Positions 8,520 through 37,677 of a DNA stretch of 45,574 nucleotides are shown one piece after another. The notes beneath the pieces are model-generated. The model worked only from the letters and a program-made list of their open reading frames with translations. It was not told the origin of the DNA and did not search any database. The stretch lies in IMG/VR virus record IMGVR_UViG_3300045988_139688; one strand, 5' to 3'. This DNA comes from a virus. The stretch's first letter is position 1, and each line of letters starts with the position of its first letter. A program made the translations under genes and the position numbers.

Positions 8520-8595
8520 TGGTTGGGATAGCTGGATTCGAACCAGCGGAATGACGGAGTCAAAGTCCGTTGCCTTACCACTTGGCTATATCCCA
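8520..8595 (-). tRNA. trnQ: tRNA-Gln (anticodon UUG) with encoded CCA
   Basis: The reverse complement TGGGATATAGCCAAGTGGTAAGGCAACGGACTTTGACTCCGTCATTCCGCTGGTTCGAATCCAGCTATCCCAACCA folds as a cloverleaf. Acceptor TGGGATA/TATCCCA; anticodon stem ACGGA/TCCGT with loop CTTTGAC; T arm GCTGG-TTCGAAT-CCAGC. Overall close to bacterial tRNA-Gln. Confidence 0.85.
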
Positions 8596-10770: not shown

Positions 10771-11019
10771 GCCTTTCGTTTTCCGTGTAAGGTAATATGT
10801 AATTATTTGGGTTTTCACACTTTTGCACTCGTTTTAACCCTCGAATTTTCCGCTTCCTTTCTCCCCTCTTCCAGCCCAGGGTGCATACCCTCAAAAATGC
10901 GGGAGCAACCTGAAACCGACACAGATGAGTTTTTCTTGTAAAAGTAAATAAATTATTAACGAATTTCAGTCAAAATATTAATTTTACAAAGTAAAAAGTT
11001 TTCCGTTTGTGACGTATTT

Positions 11020-11520
11020 ACATAAAAATCGTCGGAAATTTTACAATACTTCAACAATATTGTACAATAAATTTTTCCGACGATTTTTCTTTCGATATTA
11101 TTTTAGTATATATATTTTATTTTATTGTATTTTTATCTATTTTTATTTACCTCTTAATTTTAAAATAAAAAATCGTCGGAAATTTTATACATAGCTCTAT
11201 GTGTAAATACACAAATGTATACAGAGACGATTTTTTAACTCCGCCTTGTAAAAAATACCGATTTTTTCACTTTTTCATACATAAAAATACCGATTTTTTC
11301 ACCGATTTTTATGCACCACCATTTTTCGTGATTTTTCACTTTTCTTCTTTTTCTCCTGCAGTCTAATCGTAAAATAAAAAATCGTCGGAAAATATTACAA
11401 TAAATTCAGCTAATACTACAATAAATCTTACAAAGCTACAACGACGATTTTTTACGATTTTCGTACATAAAAATACCGATTTTTTACGATTTTCACCCAT
11501 AAAAATACCGATTTTTCGAA
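11020..11520. repeat. Iteron array with AT-rich core; putative replication origin / divergent control region
   Basis: AAAATCGTCGGAAA occurs directly at about 11025, 11168 and 11378 and inverted at about 11073. AAAATACCGATTTTT occurs four times, at about 11253, 11283, 11469 and 11501. The CGATTTTT/AAAAATCG core occurs about 14 times. An almost pure A/T stretch spans 11095..11170. The inverted pair GTATTTACA (about 11014) / TGTAAATAC (about 11203) flanks it. Confidence 0.7.
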
Positions 11521-11654
11521 CCTCCTAAAATTTTACTTTTAAACTTTTTAGCTATAAATTATTACCAGATTATTAACAAAATCAAATTTTGTTGTATCTT
11601 AAAAGTTTCTTTGTAGTGATACCCTACAAGAACCTTGTAGATTCACCATTTATC

Positions 11655-26726: not shown

Positions 26727-27725
26727 ATGGACTTATACAAGATTCCTGGAGATACTGGTGGAGATTGGAGACTTCAGAAATTTGTAGAATATCAACACGA
26801 AGTTCCAAGCATACATTACAGGGTATTGGGTGAGTACATAAAAAAATACCAAATCAATAAAAACAGAGCTGTTCTTATGTGTTGGTATATGTCTTGCACA
26901 TATAACGAAGTAACATGTGTATTGATGAATGAATTGATTAGCCCTAAGCTATTAAAAGACAAGACTTATGTCAATAAATTCTGGAAACAATATAAGGCTG
27001 TTCTTGATTTTGGGTCAAGCCGAAAGTACGCTAAGAACATGGACTGGATACCAGAGTTATTGCCTGAGTTCTTCAAACATGTACGAGGGAAGCCCTATGA
27101 TTGGCTAAAGACATTTCCTGATGGCAAGATTGGGTATTCTCAGATATATTCAGAAATTTCTAATCTCAAATATGTCGGAAGATTTGCTACTGATTTGTTT
27201 ATGGAATCCTTGTTGTATCTAAATGATTATTTTGGAACTAACTACATAGAACCAGAAAAACTCGATTGGAAGAACTGCAGTAACCTTACATCTGGTTTGC
27301 TTAACATCTTCTATAAGGATGAAGAAGCAAATTTGTTTGATAAAACTCACAAACTGCCTGTAGAAGAGGATTTGCTTAATGAGTATCTTTCTAAGGTCAA
27401 AGATGCAATATATCAGACTTATCCTGAACAAAGAGATGATGGTATCAATTTGTTTGTTGGAAAGATATGTAGCTTTAGGAATTTGTTCAAAAATTCAAGA
27501 TACGGAGGGTTCCATCATGATAGAGAACTAGGGGTGCTAAAAGCTTATGAGAAAGCTCTTCCTGAGTATTCTTATCTTTGGAGAAGATTCTATGGGCTGA
27601 GACGAGATATGTTTCCCAAGCACCTACTGGGTGAGCTAAATGGCTGGAACGGAATTAGAAGGGAACGCAAAAAGTTGTTTCTCTCTCAAGGACTTACAGG
27701 AGTAGAGATGAATGACCATGAATAG
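26727..27725 (+). CDS. All-helical orphan coupled to the P-loop kinase (candidate 5-HMUDK helical module or aGPT-Pplase-like transferase)
   Basis: 332 aa with an AAGGAGG RBS. It ends 10 nt before the kinase start and has no enzymatic motif I can name. Confidence 0.4.
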   Translation: MDLYKIPGDTGGDWRLQKFVEYQHEVPSIHYRVLGEYIKKYQINKNRAVLMCWYMSCTYNEVTCVLMNELISPKLLKDKTYVNKFWKQYKAVLDFGSSRKYAKNMDWIPELLPEFFKHVRGKPYDWLKTFPDGKIGYSQIYSEISNLKYVGRFATDLFMESLLYLNDYFGTNYIEPEKLDWKNCSNLTSGLLNIFYKDEEANLFDKTHKLPVEEDLLNEYLSKVKDAIYQTYPEQRDDGINLFVGKICSFRNLFKNSRYGGFHHDRELGVLKAYEKALPEYSYLWRRFYGLRRDMFPKHLLGELNGWNGIRRERKKLFLSQGLTGVEMNDHE

Positions 27726-27735
27726 GAGAGTTGCT

Positions 27736-28362
27736 ATGAAATTTATTACAAACAGGGTCATTGTAAATATCAGGGGAACAAACGGCTCTGGAAAAAGCTC
27801 AATCCCATTGAGTATGTTAGATGACCCAGAGCAGTTTATAGTCAAGAAGCCCTATAAAGGCAAGCAAATCAAGATTTTGACTGTATTTCCAACATATAAC
27901 TGGGTTGCTTTAGGAGCTTATGAAAAGGGCAAGACTTGTGGTGGAATGGATACATTACCTAACAACGAATTAACACAAAAGGCTTTTTGGTATGCCCTCA
28001 GAAAATATCCTGAATACAACTTGTTGATGGAAGGAATTATTGCCTCAACAATATACTCAACATACGCAAAGCTTTTTGCAGAAACTCAGACAAAATACCC
28101 TGACACAAAGGTTGTTGTATTGCATTTGACCCCTGGATTACACACATGTCTAAAACGAATACAAAATAGAAATGGTGGCAAGCCTATCAAAGAAAATCTT
28201 GTCGCAGATAAGATTAAGGCGATTAACCGAGCTGTGGACAAGTTTGAACCAGAAGTCAAGGTTATTAAATGGAATAACACAGGTTCCATGAAGAAATATC
28301 GGCACCAGAAGTTGATTTATCAAGTTGAAGAAATTATTGAAGACAACATAATCCCATTTTAA
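27736..28362 (+). CDS. P-loop kinase (candidate 5-hydroxymethylpyrimidine DNA kinase)
   Basis: ATG 27736 after AGGAG. Walker A IRGTNGSGKSS and Walker B-like NLLMEG. About 208 aa; distinct from the Tmk-like kinase downstream. Confidence 0.5.
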   Translation: MKFITNRVIVNIRGTNGSGKSSIPLSMLDDPEQFIVKKPYKGKQIKILTVFPTYNWVALGAYEKGKTCGGMDTLPNNELTQKAFWYALRKYPEYNLLMEGIIASTIYSTYAKLFAETQTKYPDTKVVVLHLTPGLHTCLKRIQNRNGGKPIKENLVADKIKAINRAVDKFEPEVKVIKWNNTGSMKKYRHQKLIYQVEEIIEDNIIPF

Positions 28363-28650: not shown

Positions 28651-29133
28651 ATGCTGATAGTTCTTGAAGGCTGCGACGGAAGCGGAAAAACAACCATTGC
28701 AAATTTGATTGCTCCGCTTATCGGAGCAGAGATAATCCATTGTACAGCTGAGACACCAAATACCTATGAGTGGTTTATTGGAATCTTGGATAAATCCAAG
28801 GAAGTAAACATAATCGCAGACAGATTCTGCTATGGGCAATTCGTATACCAAGACCCTTGTGACCGAAGTTTGAATGAAGTTGCATTGAGAAGTCTTGAAA
28901 GCATGCTAAAAGCAGCAAATACCAAGGTTGTTTATGTTGATGCTGATTCAAGAATCATAAAACATAGGCTCAACAAACGTGGAGAATTAACAGAGATACC
29001 TGTAGAAGAGATACAACGACGCTATAGGCAAGTGTTTACTGAATCTACAATGGATGTTTATGTAATCAAGACTGATGAACCGAGTATGTGCATATCTAAA
29101 TTTGCACAGAGAGGAGGATTAAACCATGGTTAA
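28651..29133 (+). CDS. Thymidylate-kinase-type dNMP kinase
   Basis: MLIVLEGCDGSGKTT is the Tmk P-loop signature (EGxDGxGKTT); 160 aa. Confidence 0.75.
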   Translation: MLIVLEGCDGSGKTTIANLIAPLIGAEIIHCTAETPNTYEWFIGILDKSKEVNIIADRFCYGQFVYQDPCDRSLNEVALRSLESMLKAANTKVVYVDADSRIIKHRLNKRGELTEIPVEEIQRRYRQVFTESTMDVYVIKTDEPSMCISKFAQRGGLNHG

Positions 29134-29830
29134 TTCTAACATTGTAATAACAGCTAAGACTGCTAATGAGGCTTGGGAACAATGGTGGACCATTCTTCAA
29201 ACAGATATACCTGAGCAGCCACAAAATTCAAGAGATGGAGCTGTGCATAACGAGGTCTTAAATGCAGTTACAATCATTGAAGACCCTACCAGAAGCATTG
29301 TAACCAGCTCAATACGCAAAATGCCAATGAGATATGCCATCGGAGAAATGCTCTGGTACCTGTCTGGCAAATCAGAGCTTTCGGAGATACAGAAGTACAC
29401 CAAGAACTGGGATAGGATGTCAGACGATGGAAAGACTGTAAATTCCAACTATGGCTGGTGTATCAAGCACAAATATGGTTTTGACCAATGGGAATTTGTG
29501 AAGCGGTTACTTACAAATGCCCCTGAGACTAGGCAAGCAGTCATCCACATTAAAACAGCCGATAATACACCTAGCAAGGATGTTAATTGTACAGTTTGCT
29601 TACAGTTCTTCCTTCGGGATGGAAAGCTATATCTGACAACTTACATGAGGTCTAATGACCTCTGGATGGGCTTTCCATATGATGTATTTCAGTTCATGAA
29701 CATGCAGGTTTTGATGGCTATGGAACTGCATGCTGACCTAGGCACGTATACCCATATAGCAGGGTCTTTACATCTATATGAGAGAGATTTTTTGAAGGCT
29801 TTGGACGGCTCAAATGTAGCTTCTAGGTGA
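29126..29830 (+). CDS. ThyA-family pyrimidine deoxynucleotide hydroxymethylase (Asp at the Asn177-equivalent position)
   Basis: IGEMLWYLSG, NSNYGW, catalytic Cys in VNCTVCLQFF, and YMRSNDLWMGFPYD. Cys-to-Arg spacing of 20 is the same as in E. coli ThyA. Confidence 0.75.
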   Translation: MVNSNIVITAKTANEAWEQWWTILQTDIPEQPQNSRDGAVHNEVLNAVTIIEDPTRSIVTSSIRKMPMRYAIGEMLWYLSGKSELSEIQKYTKNWDRMSDDGKTVNSNYGWCIKHKYGFDQWEFVKRLLTNAPETRQAVIHIKTADNTPSKDVNCTVCLQFFLRDGKLYLTTYMRSNDLWMGFPYDVFQFMNMQVLMAMELHADLGTYTHIAGSLHLYERDFLKALDGSNVASR

Positions 29831-30889: not shown

Positions 30890-32312
30890 GTACATATTCA
30901 AAACAACACCTTGGGAGCATCAAATCAAGGCATTGAATTATCTGTATCAAAGAGATGTGGCTGCACTGTACACAGATATGGGTACGGGTAAAACCAAGGT
31001 GATGATTGACCTGATAATTAATCGCAGATTCAGACGAGTTCTAATCACCTGCACTAGCAAAGGGTGTGACGTGTGGGAACGAGAGTTTAAAAAACACTCA
31101 GACTTACAACCAGAAATTGTCCTAAATTTGTCGGGAGTACCTACCCCAAAGAAAGTATCAACCCTAAAAAGTCCTTTTTATAAGCAAATTTTGAACAACA
31201 AAATGAACACCCTCATTATCATATGTAATTATGAGAGCGTTTGGAGAGAGCCTTTTGCCAGTCTATTGTTAACTAAACGACTTGGAATAGATTGTGTCAT
31301 CTGTGATGAGAGTCATCGTATTAAATCTCCTGGTAGCAAGTGTTCAAAATTCCTAACTAAGATTGGTAAGCGTGTACCATATCGATATTTGGTAACAGGT
31401 ACACCTCTGGCGGAGAACCCTATTGACATATATGCTCAATATCGGTTTTTAGACCCAAAAATCTTTGGTACTCGTTTGTCAGATTTTCAAGACAGGTACG
31501 AGAATCTGGATGCTGCAAGAACAATGCAAGTCGGTTATCGAGTACTGGACTCAAAACACCCTTACAAGAATTTAAACGAGTTGCAAGAAAAGATGTTTAG
31601 CTGTGCATTTAAAGCGGAAAGCTCACTCAAGCTACCAGCTCAGCGGAATATCTGTATCACATTCAAAATCTCTGCTCAAGCCGAGAAAACTTACAAGGAG
31701 TTAACAAAAGAGGGTGTCTTGGAATATGACGAAGGCACAATCGAAGTTGAAAATGTTTTAAACCTGAGTCAACGTCAACAACAAATCGTTTCAGGGTTTA
31801 TTCCTGTAATGTCTGATTGCAACGAGATGAACTTTATTGACATTGATAAAAGTCGCACCGAAGCTTTGGAAGAATTGCTGCAAGGTCTGTCTAAAGAAGA
31901 GCCTGTGGTAGTATTTGCCAGATTCAAAAGAGACCTCAAAAACATCAAATCTGTTTGTCAAAAGCTTCATCGAGGTTACTCAGAGCTTTCAGGCAATCTG
32001 GACACAGAAGCAGATTGGCAAGAGGGGAAAACCCAAATTCTTGGAGTACAATATACCTCTGGCTCAGAGAGTGTAGACTTTACAAAAGCTCGTTACTGTA
32101 TATACTACAGCTACACAACCAGTTTAGCTCAATATCTGCAAAGCAAGAAGAGGATACACCGTCCAGGTCAAACAAGACCTGTTGTATATTACCATATAAT
32201 TGCTAAGCTTCGCCAAGGTATATCAGTGGATGAAAAAATTGTAAGAGCCTTGAAAGCAAAGAAAGATGTTGTTGATTTTTTGATGAATTTTGAACAAAAA
32301 GAAAAGCCCTGA
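30876..32312 (+). CDS. SNF2-family DEAD/H helicase
   Basis: Motif I DMGTGKT, motif II VICDESHRIK, and C-terminal helicase motifs (QYLQSKKRIHRPGQ). Confidence 0.85.
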   Translation: MKKPKYIFKTTPWEHQIKALNYLYQRDVAALYTDMGTGKTKVMIDLIINRRFRRVLITCTSKGCDVWEREFKKHSDLQPEIVLNLSGVPTPKKVSTLKSPFYKQILNNKMNTLIIICNYESVWREPFASLLLTKRLGIDCVICDESHRIKSPGSKCSKFLTKIGKRVPYRYLVTGTPLAENPIDIYAQYRFLDPKIFGTRLSDFQDRYENLDAARTMQVGYRVLDSKHPYKNLNELQEKMFSCAFKAESSLKLPAQRNICITFKISAQAEKTYKELTKEGVLEYDEGTIEVENVLNLSQRQQQIVSGFIPVMSDCNEMNFIDIDKSRTEALEELLQGLSKEEPVVVFARFKRDLKNIKSVCQKLHRGYSELSGNLDTEADWQEGKTQILGVQYTSGSESVDFTKARYCIYYSYTTSLAQYLQSKKRIHRPGQTRPVVYYHIIAKLRQGISVDEKIVRALKAKKDVVDFLMNFEQKEKP

Positions 32313-32329
32313 GACATCTCAGGGCTTTT
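32302..32329. terminator. Bidirectional intrinsic terminator between convergent genes
   Basis: AAAA-GCCCTGAGA-ca-TCTCAGGGC-TTTT. Confidence 0.75.
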
Positions 32330-32343
32330 CTATTGCTATCAGA

Positions 32344-32748
32344 TTAAAGAAGTTCAATCTTGTTAGCAAATCTTGGATTTTTAGAATTTGTCTGAACAAA
32401 AGAAGAATCAAATACAAGAAGACCTTTCTTGGTTGTTACATAATAGAGGGTGCCAGAAGATGTTGCAGTGAATTCTCCGATTACCATTCCTGTAAAGGCT
32501 TTGAGAATAACTCTTATTACCTTGGGTTTTGACTTGCTTATTGCCTTTCGAGCTGCTTTTGCACTTTCAAGCTTGCTGTTGTACTTGTCACAGTCCTCAT
32601 CAAATTTGTCTTCAGTAGAAATGAATCTTATCTTGTAACCATTTCTTTTGAGGTCAGCTTCGAAGCTCTTTTTGCTTGAATAATCTTCTCGTGTAATCAC
32701 CTCAAGCTTGTTAGTGTCCTTATTCCTTACAGATGCTACATATTTCAT
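32344..32748 (-). CDS. KAFTGM-domain protein (paralogous domain 3 of 3), monocistronic with own early-type cassette
   Basis: 134 aa. C-terminus RVILKAFTGMVIGEFTATSSGTLYYVTTKKGLLVFDSSFVQTNSKNPRFANKIELL. Confidence 0.8.
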   Translation of the reverse strand: MKYVASVRNKDTNKLEVITREDYSSKKSFEADLKRNGYKIRFISTEDKFDEDCDKYNSKLESAKAARKAISKSKPKVIRVILKAFTGMVIGEFTATSSGTLYYVTTKKGLLVFDSSFVQTNSKNPRFANKIELL

Positions 32749-32803: not shown

Positions 32804-32868
32804 ATTATATTACTTTTGTAGCTTGAAATAAAGTATTTTTGGTAAAATAATTATTAACAAATTATAAA
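32804..32868 (-). promoter_or_regulatory. Conserved promoter cassette, copy F (minus strand)
   Basis: The reverse complement reads gtttataatTTGTTAATAAttatTTTACcaaaaaTACTTTATT-tcaagctacaaaagt-AATATAAT. Confidence 0.6.
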
Positions 32869-33447
32869 CTATTTGTACTTTTTATGAATGCAGGATTGAA
32901 TCTCAAGGATGTAGTTCATGTCATAGCCTACTGCCCTAAGCTTTATCAGATATTTGTATATGGTTTTCAGCTCGCAGGTTACGTCTTTAATCAAGCAATC
33001 CACTTTAGCTGCATCTGCCATATTGCCCATTTCACAAAGGGCTTTCGAATAGTCCTCATAACAGTGCTTTGTCTCTTCTTCCCAAGTTTTGTAAGCTTCA
33101 AAAGAGGATTCAACATATTGCTTACGCAATTGAGCTGTAACATCCATTCGAGTATAGTTGTACCAATCTTCAGGTACAACTGAAGCAGGAGCTTCTGAAT
33201 TACAGTTCAAAAGCTTATTGTGTGTAGACATGAAGTAGTGCTTTGTCTTTTGAAATTCCTTGGACTCCTCACAGAATTGATGGTGGTGCCAGCGTTTGAA
33301 ACCTGCAAGACCAAGAAAGTCATACAAGTCTTTCATCTTGTCATGAAACATGAGAGCTTTGACCTGACGTTTTCCAACCTCTTGAAAAATTTCTGTACAA
33401 GTCATCTCTGATACAGGTTTAACAGTGTTAGTTGTATCAATTACCAT
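32869..33447 (-). CDS. Cys-rich helical protein with ferritin-like helix pattern (orphan operon gene 7)
   Basis: 192 aa with 8 Cys. DLYDFLGLAGFKRWHHHQFCEESKEF resembles the ferritin/Dps helix B region, but the canonical ExxH ligands are not evident. Confidence 0.6.
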   Translation of the reverse strand: MVIDTTNTVKPVSEMTCTEIFQEVGKRQVKALMFHDKMKDLYDFLGLAGFKRWHHHQFCEESKEFQKTKHYFMSTHNKLLNCNSEAPASVVPEDWYNYTRMDVTAQLRKQYVESSFEAYKTWEEETKHCYEDYSKALCEMGNMADAAKVDCLIKDVTCELKTIYKYLIKLRAVGYDMNYILEIQSCIHKKYK

Positions 33448-33465
33448 TTGTATTCCCCCTCGAGC

Positions 33466-33888
33466 TTAGCACTCACGAGTGATAAACAGATTAGCTTGAG
33501 ATACAAGGATGTCTGCTGCAGAGTTGTTCTTGATTGAGATTGTTACAGATGAGCCACACGGAACTTTGACAAGAACACTGGAAGATACATTGAAATATGC
33601 ATCAGCAACTGTTGGAGTTACAACCATTTCACTTCCTGAGATTGTTTCTCCTGTGTTTGTAATGTCAAGTGTAATTGGTGCAGCAGTAGTAGGGTTTGCT
33701 ACATTAGCATTGAACCCAATCTCATAAATTCCTGGTTTAGTGATTGTAAAGAGACCGCTTCCGAGGTCATGAGAAAGCCAGCCATCACAGCAAGGCTTGC
33801 AGGAATTTGTTCTAATTCTGTCTGTTGCGAAGGTAACGTTTTGTGTTGCTGCTACAGTTTGTACAGCTGCATTTACTGAGTTAATCAT
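33466..33888 (-). CDS. C1q/TNF-like (BclA C-terminal-domain-like) beta-sandwich protein with N-terminal Cys motif (orphan operon gene 6)
   Basis: ATG 33888 lies 9 nt after AAAGGA (MINSVNAAV...). SCKPCCDG is followed by ITKPGIYEIGFNANV...ISGSE...VKVPCGSSVTISIKNNS...ANLFITREC. Confidence 0.55.
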   Translation of the reverse strand: MINSVNAAVQTVAATQNVTFATDRIRTNSCKPCCDGWLSHDLGSGLFTITKPGIYEIGFNANVANPTTAAPITLDITNTGETISGSEMVVTPTVADAYFNVSSSVLVKVPCGSSVTISIKNNSAADILVSQANLFITREC

Positions 33889-33915
33889 TATAATCATCCT
33901 TTCATTAAATACAAA

Positions 33916-33939
33916 GGAGTGAGTCTTATGGCTCACTCC
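33916..33939 (-). terminator. Intra-operon hairpin (attenuator or RNA-stability element)
   Basis: GGAGTGAG-8 nt-CTCACTCC. On the minus strand it is followed by TTTGTATTT. Confidence 0.35.
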
Positions 33940-33953
33940 TTTATTGAGTAAAC

Positions 33954-34184
33954 CTACACTTCAGGTTTGGAATTTTCCAATATACTCAAAATCTTTTGTT
34001 GGTTGGCAATTATGGTCTTTAGATACCGTTCATCTTGAACCTGGAGCTCATACATGATATCGTCATTGCTTAGCTGTTTTGCATTCTTTTGAACGTTTGT
34101 CAACTGAATACAAAAGCTAATCATTGTGATAATATCTAGTAAATCAAACTGCTGGCTTGATTGTACATTAGCATCCGCAGCCAT
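33954..34184 (-). CDS. Small helical protein (orphan operon gene 5)
   Basis: 76-aa ORF overlapping the end of the upstream gene. Confidence 0.55.
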   Translation of the reverse strand: MAADANVQSSQQFDLLDIITMISFCIQLTNVQKNAKQLSNDDIMYELQVQDERYLKTIIANQQKILSILENSKPEV

Positions 34185-34878
34185 AAGCTTGTCTGTAAGG
34201 GTTTATTGACTCATAAGGTGAGCAGGTGATGTAAGCTGGCTGACTTACAGGTCTTACAGCATTGATAATGGTATTTGTTTGAGCCTGATTGCCGAGCTGA
34301 AGCTGTGCTGCTTGAAGGTTATCTCTGAGCTCTTGAATTGTGTTCTGTGTCATGATATCAACGATACGTTGTGTATTTGCTTGGCTTGCATTGATGATGT
34401 CACAAGTGTTCTTAGCATTCTCGTAGCGGAGAGCATCAATGTTTCTGTTTGTTTCGCAGCAGCAATTCTGCATCTGGTAACCAAGGTTATTGATGTTCTG
34501 ATTTGTTGCATTGAAGCCATTGTTTACTGCACTTGTTATGCCATTGAAACCTTGACAAAGGTCACGCTGGATACCATTGAATCCCTGAAGCATTGTAGTA
34601 TTCTGTGCGTAGAAACCATCACAGAGACCGCTCTGAATACCCCTTACAGAATTATCAAGGCTCTGGAAGTTCATATCTTGGCAGAGGTCTGCTCTTGTAA
34701 GAGTTCCCTGAAGGTCAGCATTTCCTCTGCCACCCCAGAAGCCGTTACCGCCCCAAGCAAGCAGGAAAAACAGGAAAAATACCCAAGCACCATTTCCTCC
34801 AAACATACCATCGTCTACATTTCTGTTTTGCAATGCGAGAGCATCAGCTACAGAAAGACCCGAATTTTCCATACCCAT
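34168..34878 (-). CDS. Membrane-anchored Cys/Asn/Gln-rich repeat protein (orphan operon gene 4)
   Basis: ATG 34878 lies 8 nt after AAGGAGG. One TM segment (AWVFFLFFLLAWGG). Three LC(Q/D)(D/G)(M/F) repeats about 20 aa apart, an NCCCE motif and a C-terminal YGCGC. 10 Cys in total. Confidence 0.7.
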   Translation of the reverse strand: MGMENSGLSVADALALQNRNVDDGMFGGNGAWVFFLFFLLAWGGNGFWGGRGNADLQGTLTRADLCQDMNFQSLDNSVRGIQSGLCDGFYAQNTTMLQGFNGIQRDLCQGFNGITSAVNNGFNATNQNINNLGYQMQNCCCETNRNIDALRYENAKNTCDIINASQANTQRIVDIMTQNTIQELRDNLQAAQLQLGNQAQTNTIINAVRPVSQPAYITCSPYESINPYRQAYGCGC

Positions 34879-34916
34879 ATCTCATTCCTCCTTCGAATAA
34901 AAATTTATGATAAACA

Positions 34917-35138
34917 CTATGGGTTGTGTTTATTTACTGTAAATTGTGATTGAACTTGTTGAAACTGTTTAATTGCGTCATCAAGATTTATACCTCGTTG
35001 TTGACATAAATTTTTGGCAATTTGCTCTAATTCTTGCTCACTTTTTCCACTTGCCATTTCTTGAGCTCTCTTGAACAAGGGGTTGCTCATCAGCTGATTT
35101 TGCATCTGTGCTGATGCCATTTGAATAGGATTGAACAT
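34917..35138 (-). CDS. Small Gln-rich protein (orphan operon gene 3)
   Basis: ATG 35138 lies 8 nt after GGGAGGT; 73 aa. Confidence 0.6.
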   Translation of the reverse strand: MFNPIQMASAQMQNQLMSNPLFKRAQEMASGKSEQELEQIAKNLCQQRGINLDDAIKQFQQVQSQFTVNKHNP

Positions 35139-35589
35139 TAGACATTACCTCCCGATTTAATTGGTCAATTTTGTCCTTTAACGTGTGTATATCATTTTTA
35201 AGGTAAGTTACCACCTCATTCAGCTCTTCACGGTTAACGAGCATTTCTGATTGTGTAACTGGGTGTGTATTTGCTGGAGCTTCTTTTTCATCTAACGAGT
35301 AGGTGTTTAACGTGGCTGTACCATCAAGATTAATCTGTTTTGTGTATATTCGTTTATTTGCGATATCAGGAAAAACAAATACTGACCCGTCCAAGTCAAT
35401 CATTGCTGCTTTGGCTTCATCGATACTTGTAACAGCTCTGCCCTTTAAGATAGATGCTTGCATTTGAGCTGGCTGTGATTGATATGGGTTTTGAGAGTAT
35501 TGCGGAAACTGCTGTTCCATCTGGTTTAGTCGTTGTTGCAACGGAGCCATCGGGTTATATCCTGGTGGTGTGTAATAATTTCCGTACAT
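35038..35589 (-). CDS. Protein with Gln/Pro/Tyr-rich N-terminus (orphan operon gene 2)
   Basis: ATG 35589 after GGGAGGA. N-terminus MYGNYYTPPGYNPMAPLQQRLNQMEQQFPQYSQNPYQSQPAQMQ. The 3' end overlaps the next ORF by 100 nt, so the true stop or overlap is uncertain. Confidence 0.6.
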   Translation of the reverse strand: MYGNYYTPPGYNPMAPLQQRLNQMEQQFPQYSQNPYQSQPAQMQASILKGRAVTSIDEAKAAMIDLDGSVFVFPDIANKRIYTKQINLDGTATLNTYSLDEKEAPANTHPVTQSEMLVNREELNEVVTYLKNDIHTLKDKIDQLNREVMSNVQSYSNGISTDAKSADEQPLVQESSRNGKWKK

Positions 35590-35761
35590 GTGTTATCCTC
35601 CCTGTTGGTATTGAATCTCTGTGCTCTATACTTTGACACAAATCTTCGTATTTATGTTCTTGCTTGTAGGATTGTATAATGCCCTGAGCTACATCAGGAC
35701 TCAAATTATATTCCCATTGTAATTCGTTCAATAGAATTTGTTCTGTGTATATCAAGCTCAT
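35555..35761 (-). CDS. Small protein (orphan operon gene 1)
   Basis: 68 aa; first ORF after promoter 35783..35811. Confidence 0.5.
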   Translation of the reverse strand: MSLIYTEQILLNELQWEYNLSPDVAQGIIQSYKQEHKYEDLCQSIEHRDSIPTGRITHVRKLLHTTRI

Positions 35762-35782
35762 CCCCTCTTCGTCTTTTAAGCT

Positions 35783-35811
35783 AATTATACTCTATTTCTA
35801 ATAGATAAAGT
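35783..35811 (-). promoter_or_regulatory. Sigma-A-type promoter of the orphan operon
   Basis: The minus strand reads TACTTT-17 nt-TATAAT (gatACTTTATctattagaaatagAGTATAAT). It shares the ACTTTAT and AGTATAAT cores with the cassettes but lacks the TTGTTAATAA box. Confidence 0.5.
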
Positions 35812-35848
35812 ATCTATAAAAGACCTGAAAAGGGCTGAAAAAGTATCT

Positions 35849-35896
35849 AAAAATGATATCAGCCCGAAGCAAGCTTTACGCTCACTTCAGGCTGAT
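35849..35896 (-). terminator. Intrinsic terminator after the sigma-like gene
   Basis: The minus strand reads ATCAGCCTGAAG-15 nt-CTTCGGGCTGAT (one mismatch) followed by ATCATTTTT. Confidence 0.6.
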
Positions 35897-35908
35897 ACTA
35901 GCACTATA

Positions 35909-36175
35909 TTACAGGAGTTTTTCAAGTTTTGATAAGATTTTTCTGTGTTTACGTTTGATAGTTGATTCAGAATAACCCATAGTATCTGCAACATAGCTTA
36001 GAGTTTTGTTTTGAAGATATAACAACTTGACTATTTGCTTATCTTCTTGGTTTAGTGTGCTTGATTCGATTAAATCAATAAATGTAGATACTTTTGGGAT
36101 ACTTTGTAATCTGTGCTTTGTTTCTATGTGAAGACTCATAGCTACCCTTTTCTGTACCTCCCACAAGTTGGACAT
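35909..36175 (-). CDS. Sigma-70 region-4-like HTH protein (candidate late/accessory transcription factor)
   Basis: 88 aa. LNQEDKQIVKLLYLQNKTLSYVADTMGYSESTIKRKHRKILSKLEKLL matches the region 4.2 / ECF C-terminal pattern. No region 2 is present. Confidence 0.6.
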   Translation of the reverse strand: MSNLWEVQKRVAMSLHIETKHRLQSIPKVSTFIDLIESSTLNQEDKQIVKLLYLQNKTLSYVADTMGYSESTIKRKHRKILSKLEKLL

Positions 36176-36254: not shown

Positions 36255-36548
36255 TTAGTCACTCCCTTCTGTATACTGAGCATTTTCACCTGCTTGATAA
36301 ACGTTGTTACCATTGCCTTCGCCAGTATCTTGTTCAATGGTTTCGGTTGTTGTAGTTGTGGTATCTGATACATCGAATTGGCTTTCATACCAAATAAACA
36401 TACCAACTTCAATCAGATTTACAAGAACCATAATGATGATAACAATCCATAGCCTTAGATGCTCTTTCTTCTTTTGATTCAGTAAATCCAAGGTAATTCG
36501 ATTGAGTGCCATACTCTCCTCAAATGCATTAGATTCATTTGTGTTCAT
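36255..36548 (-). CDS. Single-pass membrane protein in lysis cassette
   Basis: ATG 36548 (MNTNESNAF...). TM segment LRLWIVIIIMVLVNLIEVGMFIWY. Confidence 0.55.
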   Translation of the reverse strand: MNTNESNAFEESMALNRITLDLLNQKKKEHLRLWIVIIIMVLVNLIEVGMFIWYESQFDVSDTTTTTTETIEQDTGEGNGNNVYQAGENAQYTEGSD

Positions 36549-36837
36549 GACTTTCTTCTCGCTCCCTTTCTTCAAGATTTTTTATTCGGGTCTCAAGATG
36601 AGATATTTGTTGAGCATGCTCTGTAAGAAGAATATCTTGTCTGTTTTGCGTGCTTTCTTGGCTATCTAGCTTGCTCTTTATCTCTGCAATACCTTTAGCA
36701 CAGGTGTCCAGTTTCTCAGCAAAACGACCATTTTGTTCAGCTTTTGAGAGACGTCCAGATATAAATGTTAAAATACCAATAACACAGGAAATAACGCCAA
36801 TTAAGAATGTAATTGTTGCTCCGTTCAATAACATCAC
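36535..36837 (-). CDS. Holin-like membrane protein (N-terminal TM + coiled coil)
   Basis: 100 aa. TM segment ATITFLIGVISCVIGILTFI. Starts 10 nt after the endolysin stop. Confidence 0.5.
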   Translation of the reverse strand: MMLLNGATITFLIGVISCVIGILTFISGRLSKAEQNGRFAEKLDTCAKGIAEIKSKLDSQESTQNRQDILLTEHAQQISHLETRIKNLEEREREESHEHK

Positions 36838-36846
36838 CTCTGCAGT

Positions 36847-37677
36847 CTATCTAATCTGAATTCTTTGTCCAGGATAGATAAGATTTGGATTTTTAATCTT
36901 ATTGTCTCGGACAAGTTTTGAGACAGAGGTTTTGTATTTAGCAGCTATGCCAGACAGAGTATCTCCCTTTTTTACAACATAAGTCCTAACTTTTGAGGAG
37001 CTGTTGGACTTGTTGTTTGTTTTTGAGGAATTAGAGGAATTTGTACCTGTAAAACCATTAAGTTTTTTGTTTTTAATGATTGCAGTGTAATCTTTATAAG
37101 CTATGTTACAGTCACACTTAGTATGTACTCCAGGAACTGAAGCTGAACTTGTATACTGCCACATTCCGTATGGAGCTTTGTAGTCTGGTTTTGAAACATC
37201 AAAATGTGCCACCCATACATCAAATCTTTTCCTTACTGCCAGTGGAACGTTGTTAATCAACCAAGAAGCATAGCTGTAGAGGGAACAGAAATAACCAGCT
37301 TTTTCCATAGAAGTGCAAAATGCTGTTATCAGCTGACCCATCTTTTCTTTTGAAATTTCAGATTGACATTTGTCTTCAATGTCAAAAGCCACTGGCATTT
37401 CAAACTTCTTTCCTTTGATAACCTGCTGAAAGACCTTGGCTTCTCTTTCTGCCTCTTCCTTTGATATTGCATAAGAATACCAATATGCTCCTACCTTGAG
37501 CCCAGCAGCTTTGGCGTTTTTGTAATTGGTCTCAAAACAGGGGTCTTTTTGGTGCAAGTATTTTCCATAACCTGCATTAATCATAACAAAATCGTAGCCT
37601 GCTGCCTTGACCAGTTTGTAATCAACGTGTCCTTGATAATGAGACACATCAATACCTTTTGAGTTTTTCATAGACAT
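36847..37677 (-). CDS. Endolysin: GH25 muramidase + C-terminal LysM
   Basis: [31 protein letters not shown] (GH25). A Ser/Asn linker follows, then the LysM domain [43 protein letters not shown]. Confidence 0.9.

Follow-up and report, generated by a model that had tools for sequence, protein, structure and literature searches.

A widespread, mobile, and privately regulated gene cassette in phages that infect gut Clostridia

A seven-gene cassette (G68, G183, G73, G236, G76, G140, and G192) is encoded on the minus strand of a siphophage genome, IMG/VR record IMGVR_UViG_3300045988_139688. The whole stretch of DNA analyzed, 45,574 nucleotides (nt), is referred to as the window. The cassette is a multi-gene, moron-like block that is widespread, mobile, dispensable, and under its own regulator, and these properties are well supported. 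The role of its products is read more tentatively. They may form a last-wave, host-directed, non-virion complex that self-assembles in association with the membrane and acts at or after lysis, a reading based on the sequences that we rate slightly below even. The purpose of the assembled structure is its weakest step. No published description of the cassette was found in literature searches.

The cassette had been picked out in a sequence-only reading of the window as seven co-directional open reading frames (ORFs), all of which are present. G68 (35555–35761) is a small variable member with a conserved L..EL.WEYN motif in its homologs. G183 (35038–35589), G73 (34917–35138), and G236 (34168–34878) are the core genes, with G236 as the anchor member. 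G76 (33954–34184) is a small helical protein by alignment and is also encoded by Clostridium perfringens phages. G140 (33466–33888) is a stand-alone C1q/TNF-like (BclA_C-like) domain, and G192 (32869–33447) is a divergent ferritin-like four-helix protein. The seven ORFs are real genes. The ratio of nonsynonymous to synonymous substitution (dN/dS) is 0.09–0.25 where computable against a relative that is 47–76% identical, and G183, G73, G236, and G192 have good Shine-Dalgarno sites. The start of G73 overlaps the end of G183 by 101 nt (35038–35138) in a different frame, and despite the overlap G73 has its own GGGAGG ribosome-binding site. Both frames of the overlap look conserved, with NVQS[YN] in the G183 tail and MFNP.QM at the G73 start.

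The products had been described as orphans, which is wrong. Four of the seven match PHROG families without assigned function, including G183 (phrog_21718), G236 (phrog_16490 at 1.8e-32), and G192 (phrog_17879), and homologs number in the thousands. Pfam and NCBIfam searches returned only noise for G68, G183, G73, G236, and G76. The products had also been called rich in Gln, Asn, and Cys. Gln makes up 8.3% of cassette residues versus 3.8% of the rest of the proteome, and Asn 8.3% versus 5.3%. The Cys enrichment is only mild (2.7% versus 1.8%); only G236, G140, and G192 reach ~4%, and other proteins of this phage reach 5–6%. GC content is typical (0.37–0.41 versus ~0.39 genome-wide). No signal peptide was recognized in any of the seven products by reading their sequences.

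Homologs were searched in 138 fetched loci with iterated hidden Markov models (HMMs), one per protein. G236 was detected in 134 loci, G183 in 131, G73 in 112, G140 in 88, G192 in 53, G76 in 47, and G68 in 6. A regulator gene, sig88, was detected in 83 loci (~60%), directly upstream of G183. Based on these counts, G183-G73-G236 are the core and the remaining genes are a variable shell. G68, which had been taken for a regular operon member, is a rare one. The order G183-G73-G236-(G76)-(G140)-(G192) is kept in ~130 loci, and no other order was seen. The homologs thus travel as a block through phages and prophages, a question for which the sequence-only reading had suggested a survey. G236 has 7371 homologs in a set of 5.8 billion proteins, 2311 clusters at 50% identity in a representative library, and 510 places in IMG/VR and 55 in GTDB genomes, mostly Clostridia. 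G183 has 1139 homologs. Alternative shell genes encode a Cys-rich protein of ~130 amino acids (aa; 44 loci), a DUF7841 protein (46 loci), and an Arg/Gly/Tyr/Ser-rich helical protein (15 loci). These alternative proteins had no PDB match and no informative Pfam match.

The cassette occurs in phages of very different architecture. In siphophages of the window type, it follows a holin-like gene, the small gene tm106, and sig88. In myo-type prophages with Baseplate_J, GPD, or P2-I genes, it follows a holin and a GH25 endolysin; sheath-initiator genes were also seen among the myo-type prophages and phages that carry it. In the prophages it abuts host genes or an integrase, with the endolysin on one side and the end of the prophage or the integrase on the other. 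A 68-kb myophage has it after an M15 endolysin gene and a sigma region 4 (sigma-r4) gene. It is also present on 119–142-kb contigs and in a 30.7-kb phage. Some of the contigs that carry it were binned, with uncertainty, with Phascolarctobacterium and Megasphaera, hosts not known to sporulate. The cassette is 44–57% identical across phages with unrelated capsid and tail types, and this mobility across unrelated particle types argues for a function independent of a particular virion.

Dispensability was assessed in 36 relatives picked by their Snf2 helicase gene alone. A full cassette is present in 24 and a partial deletion in 4, and at least 2 have at least 3.7 kb downstream of the Snf2 gene without any cassette gene. 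Two partial deletions keep only sig88-G68-G183-G73, and one keeps only G140-G76-G192. The fourth has a G236 fragment fused to tm106, plus G140-G76-G192. Single ORFs in deletion variants match tm106 and G140 (contig L151, 12499–13023) or tm106 and G236 (contig L179, 12470–13003). Because related genomes carry a full, a partly deleted, or no cassette, the cassette is accessory. Contig L005 (6447–9453) has a mosaic cassette, in which G236 and G140 are 82% identical to those of the window and G183, G73, G76, and G192 are only 45–56% identical. These values indicate recombination inside the cassette. Judged by such genome comparisons, the cassette is a horizontally mobile, dispensable accessory block, and among the phages and prophages found in gut Clostridia it is very common.

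The putative activator gene sig88 (35909–36175, minus strand) encodes an 88-aa protein that consists only of a sigma-70 region-4-like helix-turn-helix. The protein matches Pfam Sigma70_r4 (PF04545) at 2e-10 (40.4 bits, cut-off 24.1), with residues 40–84 aligned to region 4. Its score against the RinA model TIGR01636 is 26.4 bits, under the cut-off of 31.9, and its match is restricted to region 4, so that sigma region 2 is missing. On both grounds, sig88 is neither a full sigma factor nor a general late activator. The sequence-only reading had credited the genome with a sigma region-4-like protein and a SpoIIID-like regulator. The former is sig88; no SpoIIID match was found among ten ORFs tested, eight in the early region and two on the minus strand within the plus-strand block.

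Between sig88 and the cassette lies a compact control region. An intrinsic terminator at 35856–35898 (minus strand), which had been predicted upstream of the cassette, has a 19-bp stem with 8 G-C pairs followed by a T-run. It ends the lysis/sig88 transcript and insulates the cassette, and relatives have a hairpin and T-run at the equivalent position. Two exact direct repeats of TAGATACTTT follow on the minus strand. The distal copy (35840–35849), a putative operator, is 33 nt upstream of the proximal copy (35807–35816). The proximal copy occupies the −35 position, 17 nt upstream of a −10 box, TATAAT (35784–35789, minus strand), that was read from the sequence. A TATAAT or TATATT box is kept at the same distance in relatives. 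The cassette promoter is not the canonical sigma-A promoter claimed earlier; its −10 box is present, and the repeat fills the −35 position. Because there is no usable −35 hexamer, a sigma-70 consensus scan reports no cassette promoter. Two more motif copies, TAGATACTTT and GGGATACTTT, lie 11 nt apart on the plus strand at 36085–36105, antisense inside the sig88 ORF, and could serve autoregulation or an antisense promoter. The 45.6-kb window contains the 8-mer GATACTTT seven times, with four of the copies concentrated in 35807–36105 (<300 nt). The TAGATACTTT motif was not found upstream of terS.

Relatives share a common layout of a sig88 stop codon, a hairpin terminator, two to four direct repeats, and TATAAT. 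At least two motif copies are present in 24 of 115 upstream regions versus 0.8% of control segments. The repeats are phased at 11- or 22-nt spacing, and their sequence changes with the sig88 subtype. Examples are GTATACTTT, CATACATTC, AGATACTTT, TTGTGGGGA, TATAGGGAA (four copies), and ATGTCRTTT. A search for a promoter between tm106 and sig88 found none. From this we infer that sig88 is expressed as the final gene of the lysis transcript and that its product then turns on the cassette promoter. Because that promoter seems to require an activator produced from the same transcript as the lysis genes, expression would be expected in the last minutes of lytic growth, not in lysogeny or sporulation.

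Both borders of the unit were mis-set when it was described as a self-contained seven-gene operon. Upstream, the sigma-r4-like gene sig88 belongs to the unit. Downstream, the promoter of a next unit had been predicted, and a sigma-70-like promoter (TTCATA, 16-nt spacer, TATAAT; 10 of 12 consensus positions) is indeed found at 32861–32888 (minus strand), upstream of g134. The gene g134 (32344–32748, minus strand) is a variable cargo gene with homologs in only two loci. A terminator scan found no terminator between G192 and g134. The next one, at 32300–32331 (minus strand), has a 14-bp stem with 7 G-C pairs and a T-run and is common to the convergent replication module. Because no terminator precedes g134, the cassette transcript probably reads through this gene and ends at 32300, and the terminator at 32300–32331 is the true 3′ end of the transcription unit.

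The regulator resembles the RinA/ArpU late-gene activators of Firmicutes phages. It is likewise small, phage-encoded, and of the sigma-70 region-4 type, with sub-threshold similarity to RinA, and it adjoins a promoter without a normal −35 box. RinA-type activators are much longer than 88 aa. In contrast to the RinA/ArpU activators, sig88 is located after the lysis genes rather than before terS, and its putative operators are at the cassette promoter and its own gene rather than at the packaging/morphogenesis operon. Because the putative operators are confined to these two sites, sig88 looks like a private regulator and not a general late switch. It has the same make-up as small proteins that consist only of a sigma-region-4/GerE-like helix-turn-helix.

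The sequence-only reading had placed the cassette in a moron position, as a self-regulated accessory unit outside the canonical virion, lysis, and replication modules. This is supported by the prophage position, the mobility, and the pattern of presence and absence. Phage morons and post-lysis cargo, such as lambda bor and lom and the toxin and immune-evasion genes of staphylococcal and streptococcal prophages, share several features with the cassette. It has its own promoter (35784–35849) and terminators (35856–35898 and 32300–32331, the latter shared with g134). Its place is the end of the late region, which in prophages is flanked by the lysin gene and the integrase or attachment site; it varies in presence and transfers between unrelated phages. 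Whereas morons have one or two cargo genes, the cassette comprises six to eight co-evolving genes and a dedicated activator. An apparently virulent phage retains it as well, the base composition of the cassette is typical, and its promoter seems to need a phage activator instead of being active in the lysogen.

The core proteins have a distinctive composition and few recognizable domains. G183 was modeled with AlphaFold2 as a disordered, Pro/Gln/Tyr-rich N-terminus, a small alpha/beta domain at residues 48–100 (predicted local distance difference test, pLDDT, ~88), and a long helix at residues 120–152. The G183 model had no Foldseek match in the PDB at E < 0.1, and profile searches of PDB sequences found nothing meaningful for G183 or G236. 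G73 has Met/Gln/Asn/Pro-rich NPxQMM repeats and, in the alignment, a conserved GKS..NLC.QRGI helical motif. These repeats are similar to the Met-rich segments of the STI1/SGTA type. In G236, a short hydrophobic helix flanked by Gly residues precedes a region rich in Gln and Asn, and the C-terminus is a GCGC tail. A diverse alignment shows C141 to be invariant, with C86, C139, C140, and C234 nearly so; Y216 and P221 of a PAY...P motif are also invariant. The charge distribution around the hydrophobic helix suggests that the large C-terminal part of G236 is cytoplasmic. A double-glycine bacteriocin leader was considered for G236 and rejected on comparison of the sequence with the leader consensus. 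G76 has a conserved hydrophobic N-terminal helix, LD..a..SF.iGLaNY.EN, in its alignment.

G140 had been likened to the C1q-like C-terminal domain of BclA, and profile searches and homologs with PF18573 support this fold. G140 itself matches Pfam BclA_C (PF18573) at 1.1e-6 (28.9 bits), under the family cut-off of 38, and homologs at 50–78% identity carry PF18573. A family profile built from 32 diverse homologs matches cerebellin-1 (6e-5), the C-terminal domain of F-BclA (PDB 9H38; 9e-5), and BclA (2e-3) in the PDB. The 9H38 match covers nearly the full length of that domain. Domains of the PF18573 family are C1q/TNF-like heads of exosporium hairs and of endospore-appendage tip fibrils. Like the C-terminal domains of BclA and F-BclA (PDB 1WCK, 9H38), G140 is predicted to be a C1q/TNF-like jelly-roll. 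The 9H38 structure is the C1q-like tip of an endospore appendage (PMC12357932), and the cysteines of G140 near its N-terminus and C-terminal strands recall the CC motifs of endospore-appendage tip proteins (PMC12357932).

G140 differs from BclA in several respects. It has no run of three or more glycine-X-Y (GXY) triplets that could form a collagen-like stalk. Its N-terminus is ~25 residues (MIIMINSVNAAVQTVAATQNVTFATD) and contains no proline-rich exosporium-targeting motif. It is phage-encoded and lies behind an activator-type promoter. All 86 G140 homologs are 134–220 aa in length. Because collagen-like repeats are absent and all relatives are this short, G140 is a bare C1q-like head and not a BclA-type protein. 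Exosporium and appendage loci hold no counterparts of the other cassette members. In other lineages, G140 is replaced by the unrelated Cys-rich protein of ~130 aa. Comparison with hhalign found no relation between G140 and its replacements in C. perfringens phages and other lineages, and the ~130-aa family had no match in a profile search of PDB sequences.

G192 had been called ferritin-like, and the top 23 PDB matches of its family profile are all ferritins (best E = 7e-4). G192 had no match to the Pfam ferritin family (PF00210) at E ≤ 1. Its conserved residues are H35, H54, E61, E123, D155, and E159; these two histidines and four carboxylates are spread over four helices and are candidate di-metal ligands. 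Compared with the ferritin/Dps superfamily (PF00210), G192 has ExxE in place of ExxH and a changed helix-A ligand. G192 is a probable di-metal ferritin-like protein and is likened by analogy to the ferritin-like spore-coat protein CotJC. A role as encapsulin/IMEF-type cargo was rejected, as only classical ferritins were among the matches. The structure and profile checks proposed earlier thus lend support to the G140 and G192 folds but yielded no Foldseek match for G183 and no usable model of G236.

We tentatively combine these features as follows. As the last gene product of the lysis/late transcript, sig88 would bind the repeats and trigger expression of the cassette as a final wave. The products lack signal peptides. 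Among them are prion-like segments rich in Gln, Asn, Pro, Tyr, and Met, coiled coils, clusters of conserved cysteines, and a short hydrophobic anchor, together with a C1q-like head of the trimer type and a probable di-metal ferritin-like protein. On the cytoplasmic side of the membrane, the products may assemble with one another into a structure that is directed at the host and is not part of the virion. Its action would come at lysis or later, for instance as an adhesive or cross-linkable material that bursting cells release. The location of the cassette after lysis genes in most lineages was counted in favor of a late, lytic setting.

A more specific form of this proposal, which we consider quite unlikely, is a self-assembling material resembling spore coats or endospore appendages. 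It would be cross-linked through cysteines or metal, made late under the private activator, and released to the gut lumen. The C1q-like head would be its adhesive part and the ferritin-like protein its oxidative enzyme, combined with the prion-like proteins and the membrane anchor. The material might embed, tether, or protect progeny virions or cell remnants as an extracellular 'extended phenotype'. Viral occlusion bodies and the extrasporal matrix of Bacillus offer a loose analogy.

Several observations weigh against a late, membrane-associated, non-virion complex. The core triad G183-G73-G236 has no match that would give a function in Pfam, NCBIfam, PDB profiles, PADLOC, or, for G183, Foldseek. 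The AlphaFold2 model of G236 is unusable (pLDDT 46 from a 43-sequence alignment). Its hydrophobic stretch is short (Kyte-Doolittle 19-residue mean of 1.48), and membrane anchoring is therefore uncertain. In the cultured C. perfringens phages XP41-N3, vB_CpeS-17DYC, and CPD1 (phiCP13O-like), the cassette lies between an antirepressor gene and Gam/Erf recombination genes. It is there among early-looking genes, and the sig88-like gene, which comes after the holin gene, is ~2.7 kb upstream. In Dulem virus 36, the cassette directly follows the receptor-binding protein gene, whereas that of Bajarodcaudo virus 2 is flanked by the portal and major capsid genes. Both of these positions would also fit a role in the virion. 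Lastly, the 2.9-kb contig L182 encodes, at 263–1936, a tail-fiber-like protein (phrog_4242, 8e-10) fused to the G236 C-terminal domain. On L182, the next ORF after the fusion encodes 80 aa, about the length that G76 would have, and a DUF7841 gene comes after it.

The two virion-module positions and the L182 fusion speak for an accessory, non-essential virion decoration or side fiber. In such a structure, G140 would be a trimeric head that binds a receptor or mucus, and G183 and G236 would form a coiled-coil stalk or attachment. TNF/C1q-like heads do serve as phage fiber tips, and weak PDB profile matches of G140 include tail-needle knobs. Late expression and the deletion variants are also compatible with a non-essential decoration. 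We nevertheless judge it unlikely. A specific docking site is hard to reconcile with the same cassette in unrelated capsid and tail types, and the private regulation apart from the morphogenesis operon, the position after the lysis genes, and the hydrophobic anchor of G236 do not fit. G140 is also missing from about one-third of the loci, where an unrelated protein is found instead. The fusion comes from a single short contig and may be a deletion artifact comparable to the joined ORFs of L151 and L179. Proximity to the lysis genes could instead point to a control device at the membrane, in which a complex centered on G236 tunes holin/endolysin timing or blocks a second phage by superinfection exclusion or defense. 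The cassette stays adjacent to the holin-like gene, tm106, and the endolysin gene in unrelated lineages, G236 and G76 have hydrophobic helices, and deletion variants join tm106 to G236 or G140. The moron site of prophages, too, often houses exclusion or defense genes. Such a device is nonetheless improbable. Among the cassette proteins there were no matches to 5027 PADLOC defense models and, apart from the separate gene hol100, no holin-family match. Exclusion and anti-defense genes are usually single proteins that are expressed early or in lysogeny. Known lysis regulators do not resemble a set of six to eight genes that encode a C1q-like head, a ferritin-like protein, and extended low-complexity regions, and the post-lysis-gene position is perhaps merely a permissive insertion site.

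The main idea of the sequence-only reading was that the proteins remodel the surface of the host spore or cell by being built into the coat, exosporium, or envelope. The BclA_C-like fold of G140, the resemblance of G192 to CotJC, and the conserved cysteines of G236, G140, G192, and the alternative ~130-aa family all agree with this idea. Proteins assembled in the cytoplasm of the mother cell would be expected to lack signal peptides. The assigned hosts are mostly Clostridia, many of them spore-forming, prophage cassettes occupy the classical site of lysogenic conversion, and the regulator is a small sigma-r4/GerE-style helix-turn-helix protein. We still find spore or cell surface remodeling very unlikely. 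G140 has neither a collagen-like stalk nor an exosporium-targeting leader, and the window phage, without a detectable integrase, looks virulent. The promoter is apparently tied to an activator co-transcribed with the lysis genes and not to a sporulation sigma factor. Carrier contigs were also binned, if uncertainly, with the two genera named above that are not known to sporulate, the Cys enrichment is modest, and no SpoIIID-like protein was seen among the ORFs tested.

The cultured C. perfringens carriers CPD1, vB_CpeS-17DYC, and XP41-N3, which are not known to form lysogens, together with the natural deletion variants, make the function of the cassette directly testable. The G236 family has >2000 clusters at 50% identity, almost all from phages of gut Clostridia, with no Pfam family and no solved relative. 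The cassette is a widely shared, dispensable, and privately regulated gene program of human-gut phages. The pair of sig88 and its phased repeats, which has several lineage-specific specificities, could serve as a compact, orthogonal late-phase expression switch for Clostridia. If the products are released as cross-linkable or adhesive material, they would be a new way for phages to shape gut persistence and spatial structure.

The window is an essentially complete siphophage genome of ~45 kb. An IMG/VR contig 99% identical to the window phage is 44.8 kb in length, and the phage was found again as free contigs of 42–45.5 kb in several gut metagenomes. No integrase was detected among the large ORFs of the window. 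Given this result and the recurrence as free contigs, the window phage looks virulent. Late genes are on the minus strand in the order small and large terminase, portal, scaffold, major capsid protein, and tail tube. Across the joined ends of the window, this order continues with tape measure, Dit, tail proteins, and fiber, followed by endolysin, holin-like gene, tm106, and sig88. The plus strand at 11–32.3 kb encodes primase, DNA polymerase I, exonuclease, a Sak4-like protein, a thymidylate-synthase-like protein, and an Snf2 helicase. The cassette sits between sig88 and the convergent end of this replication module, of which the Snf2 helicase gene is the last. Annotation thus bears out the location between lysis genes and replication module given in the sequence-only reading.

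The lysis genes are on the minus strand and include a GH25+LysM endolysin (36847–37677) and the holin-like hol100 (36535–36837). Between hol100 and sig88 is tm106 (36255–36575, minus strand), which encodes a small protein with one transmembrane helix. Its transmembrane segment is strong (Kyte-Doolittle 19-residue mean of 2.62). It is a frequent upstream neighbor of the cassette and is syntenic at 45 of the 138 loci, including distant lineages and the C. perfringens phages. The sole tRNA, tRNA-Gln(UUG) at 8520–8595, lies between the large terminase and portal genes. It is the single Rfam match in the window, and nothing was found in the cassette region. A tRNA dedicated to the Gln-rich cassette was considered and rejected, as CAA accounts for an equal fraction of Gln codons (0.64) in the cassette and elsewhere in the genome.

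Other regions of the genome have features apart from the cassette. The divergent intergenic region between the late and early modules (11000–11560) has a GC content of 27.5% and several AAAAATCGGTATTTTTATGTA-like and TTTCCGACGATTTTT-like repeats, and may be an origin or a repressor/operator array. Near-identical genomes annotate HMUDK_HMUD1 at 27712–28362, a faint deoxynucleoside monophosphate (dNMP)-kinase match at 28651–29133, and Thymidylat_synt (Pfam) at 29126–29830. These genes hint at modified DNA of the hydroxymethyl-deoxyuridine type. The ORF at 27712–28362 is labeled as a 'terminase small subunit' family by PHROGs, which is probably a misleading label. The distal tail region differs among four contigs that encode an identical G140 and have the same layout around the cassette. 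One gene of 754–786 aa versus three genes of ~225 aa distinguishes L183 and L186 (3486–5846) from L184 (3531–5575) and L185 (2992–5038). This difference looks like the swap of a host-range module.

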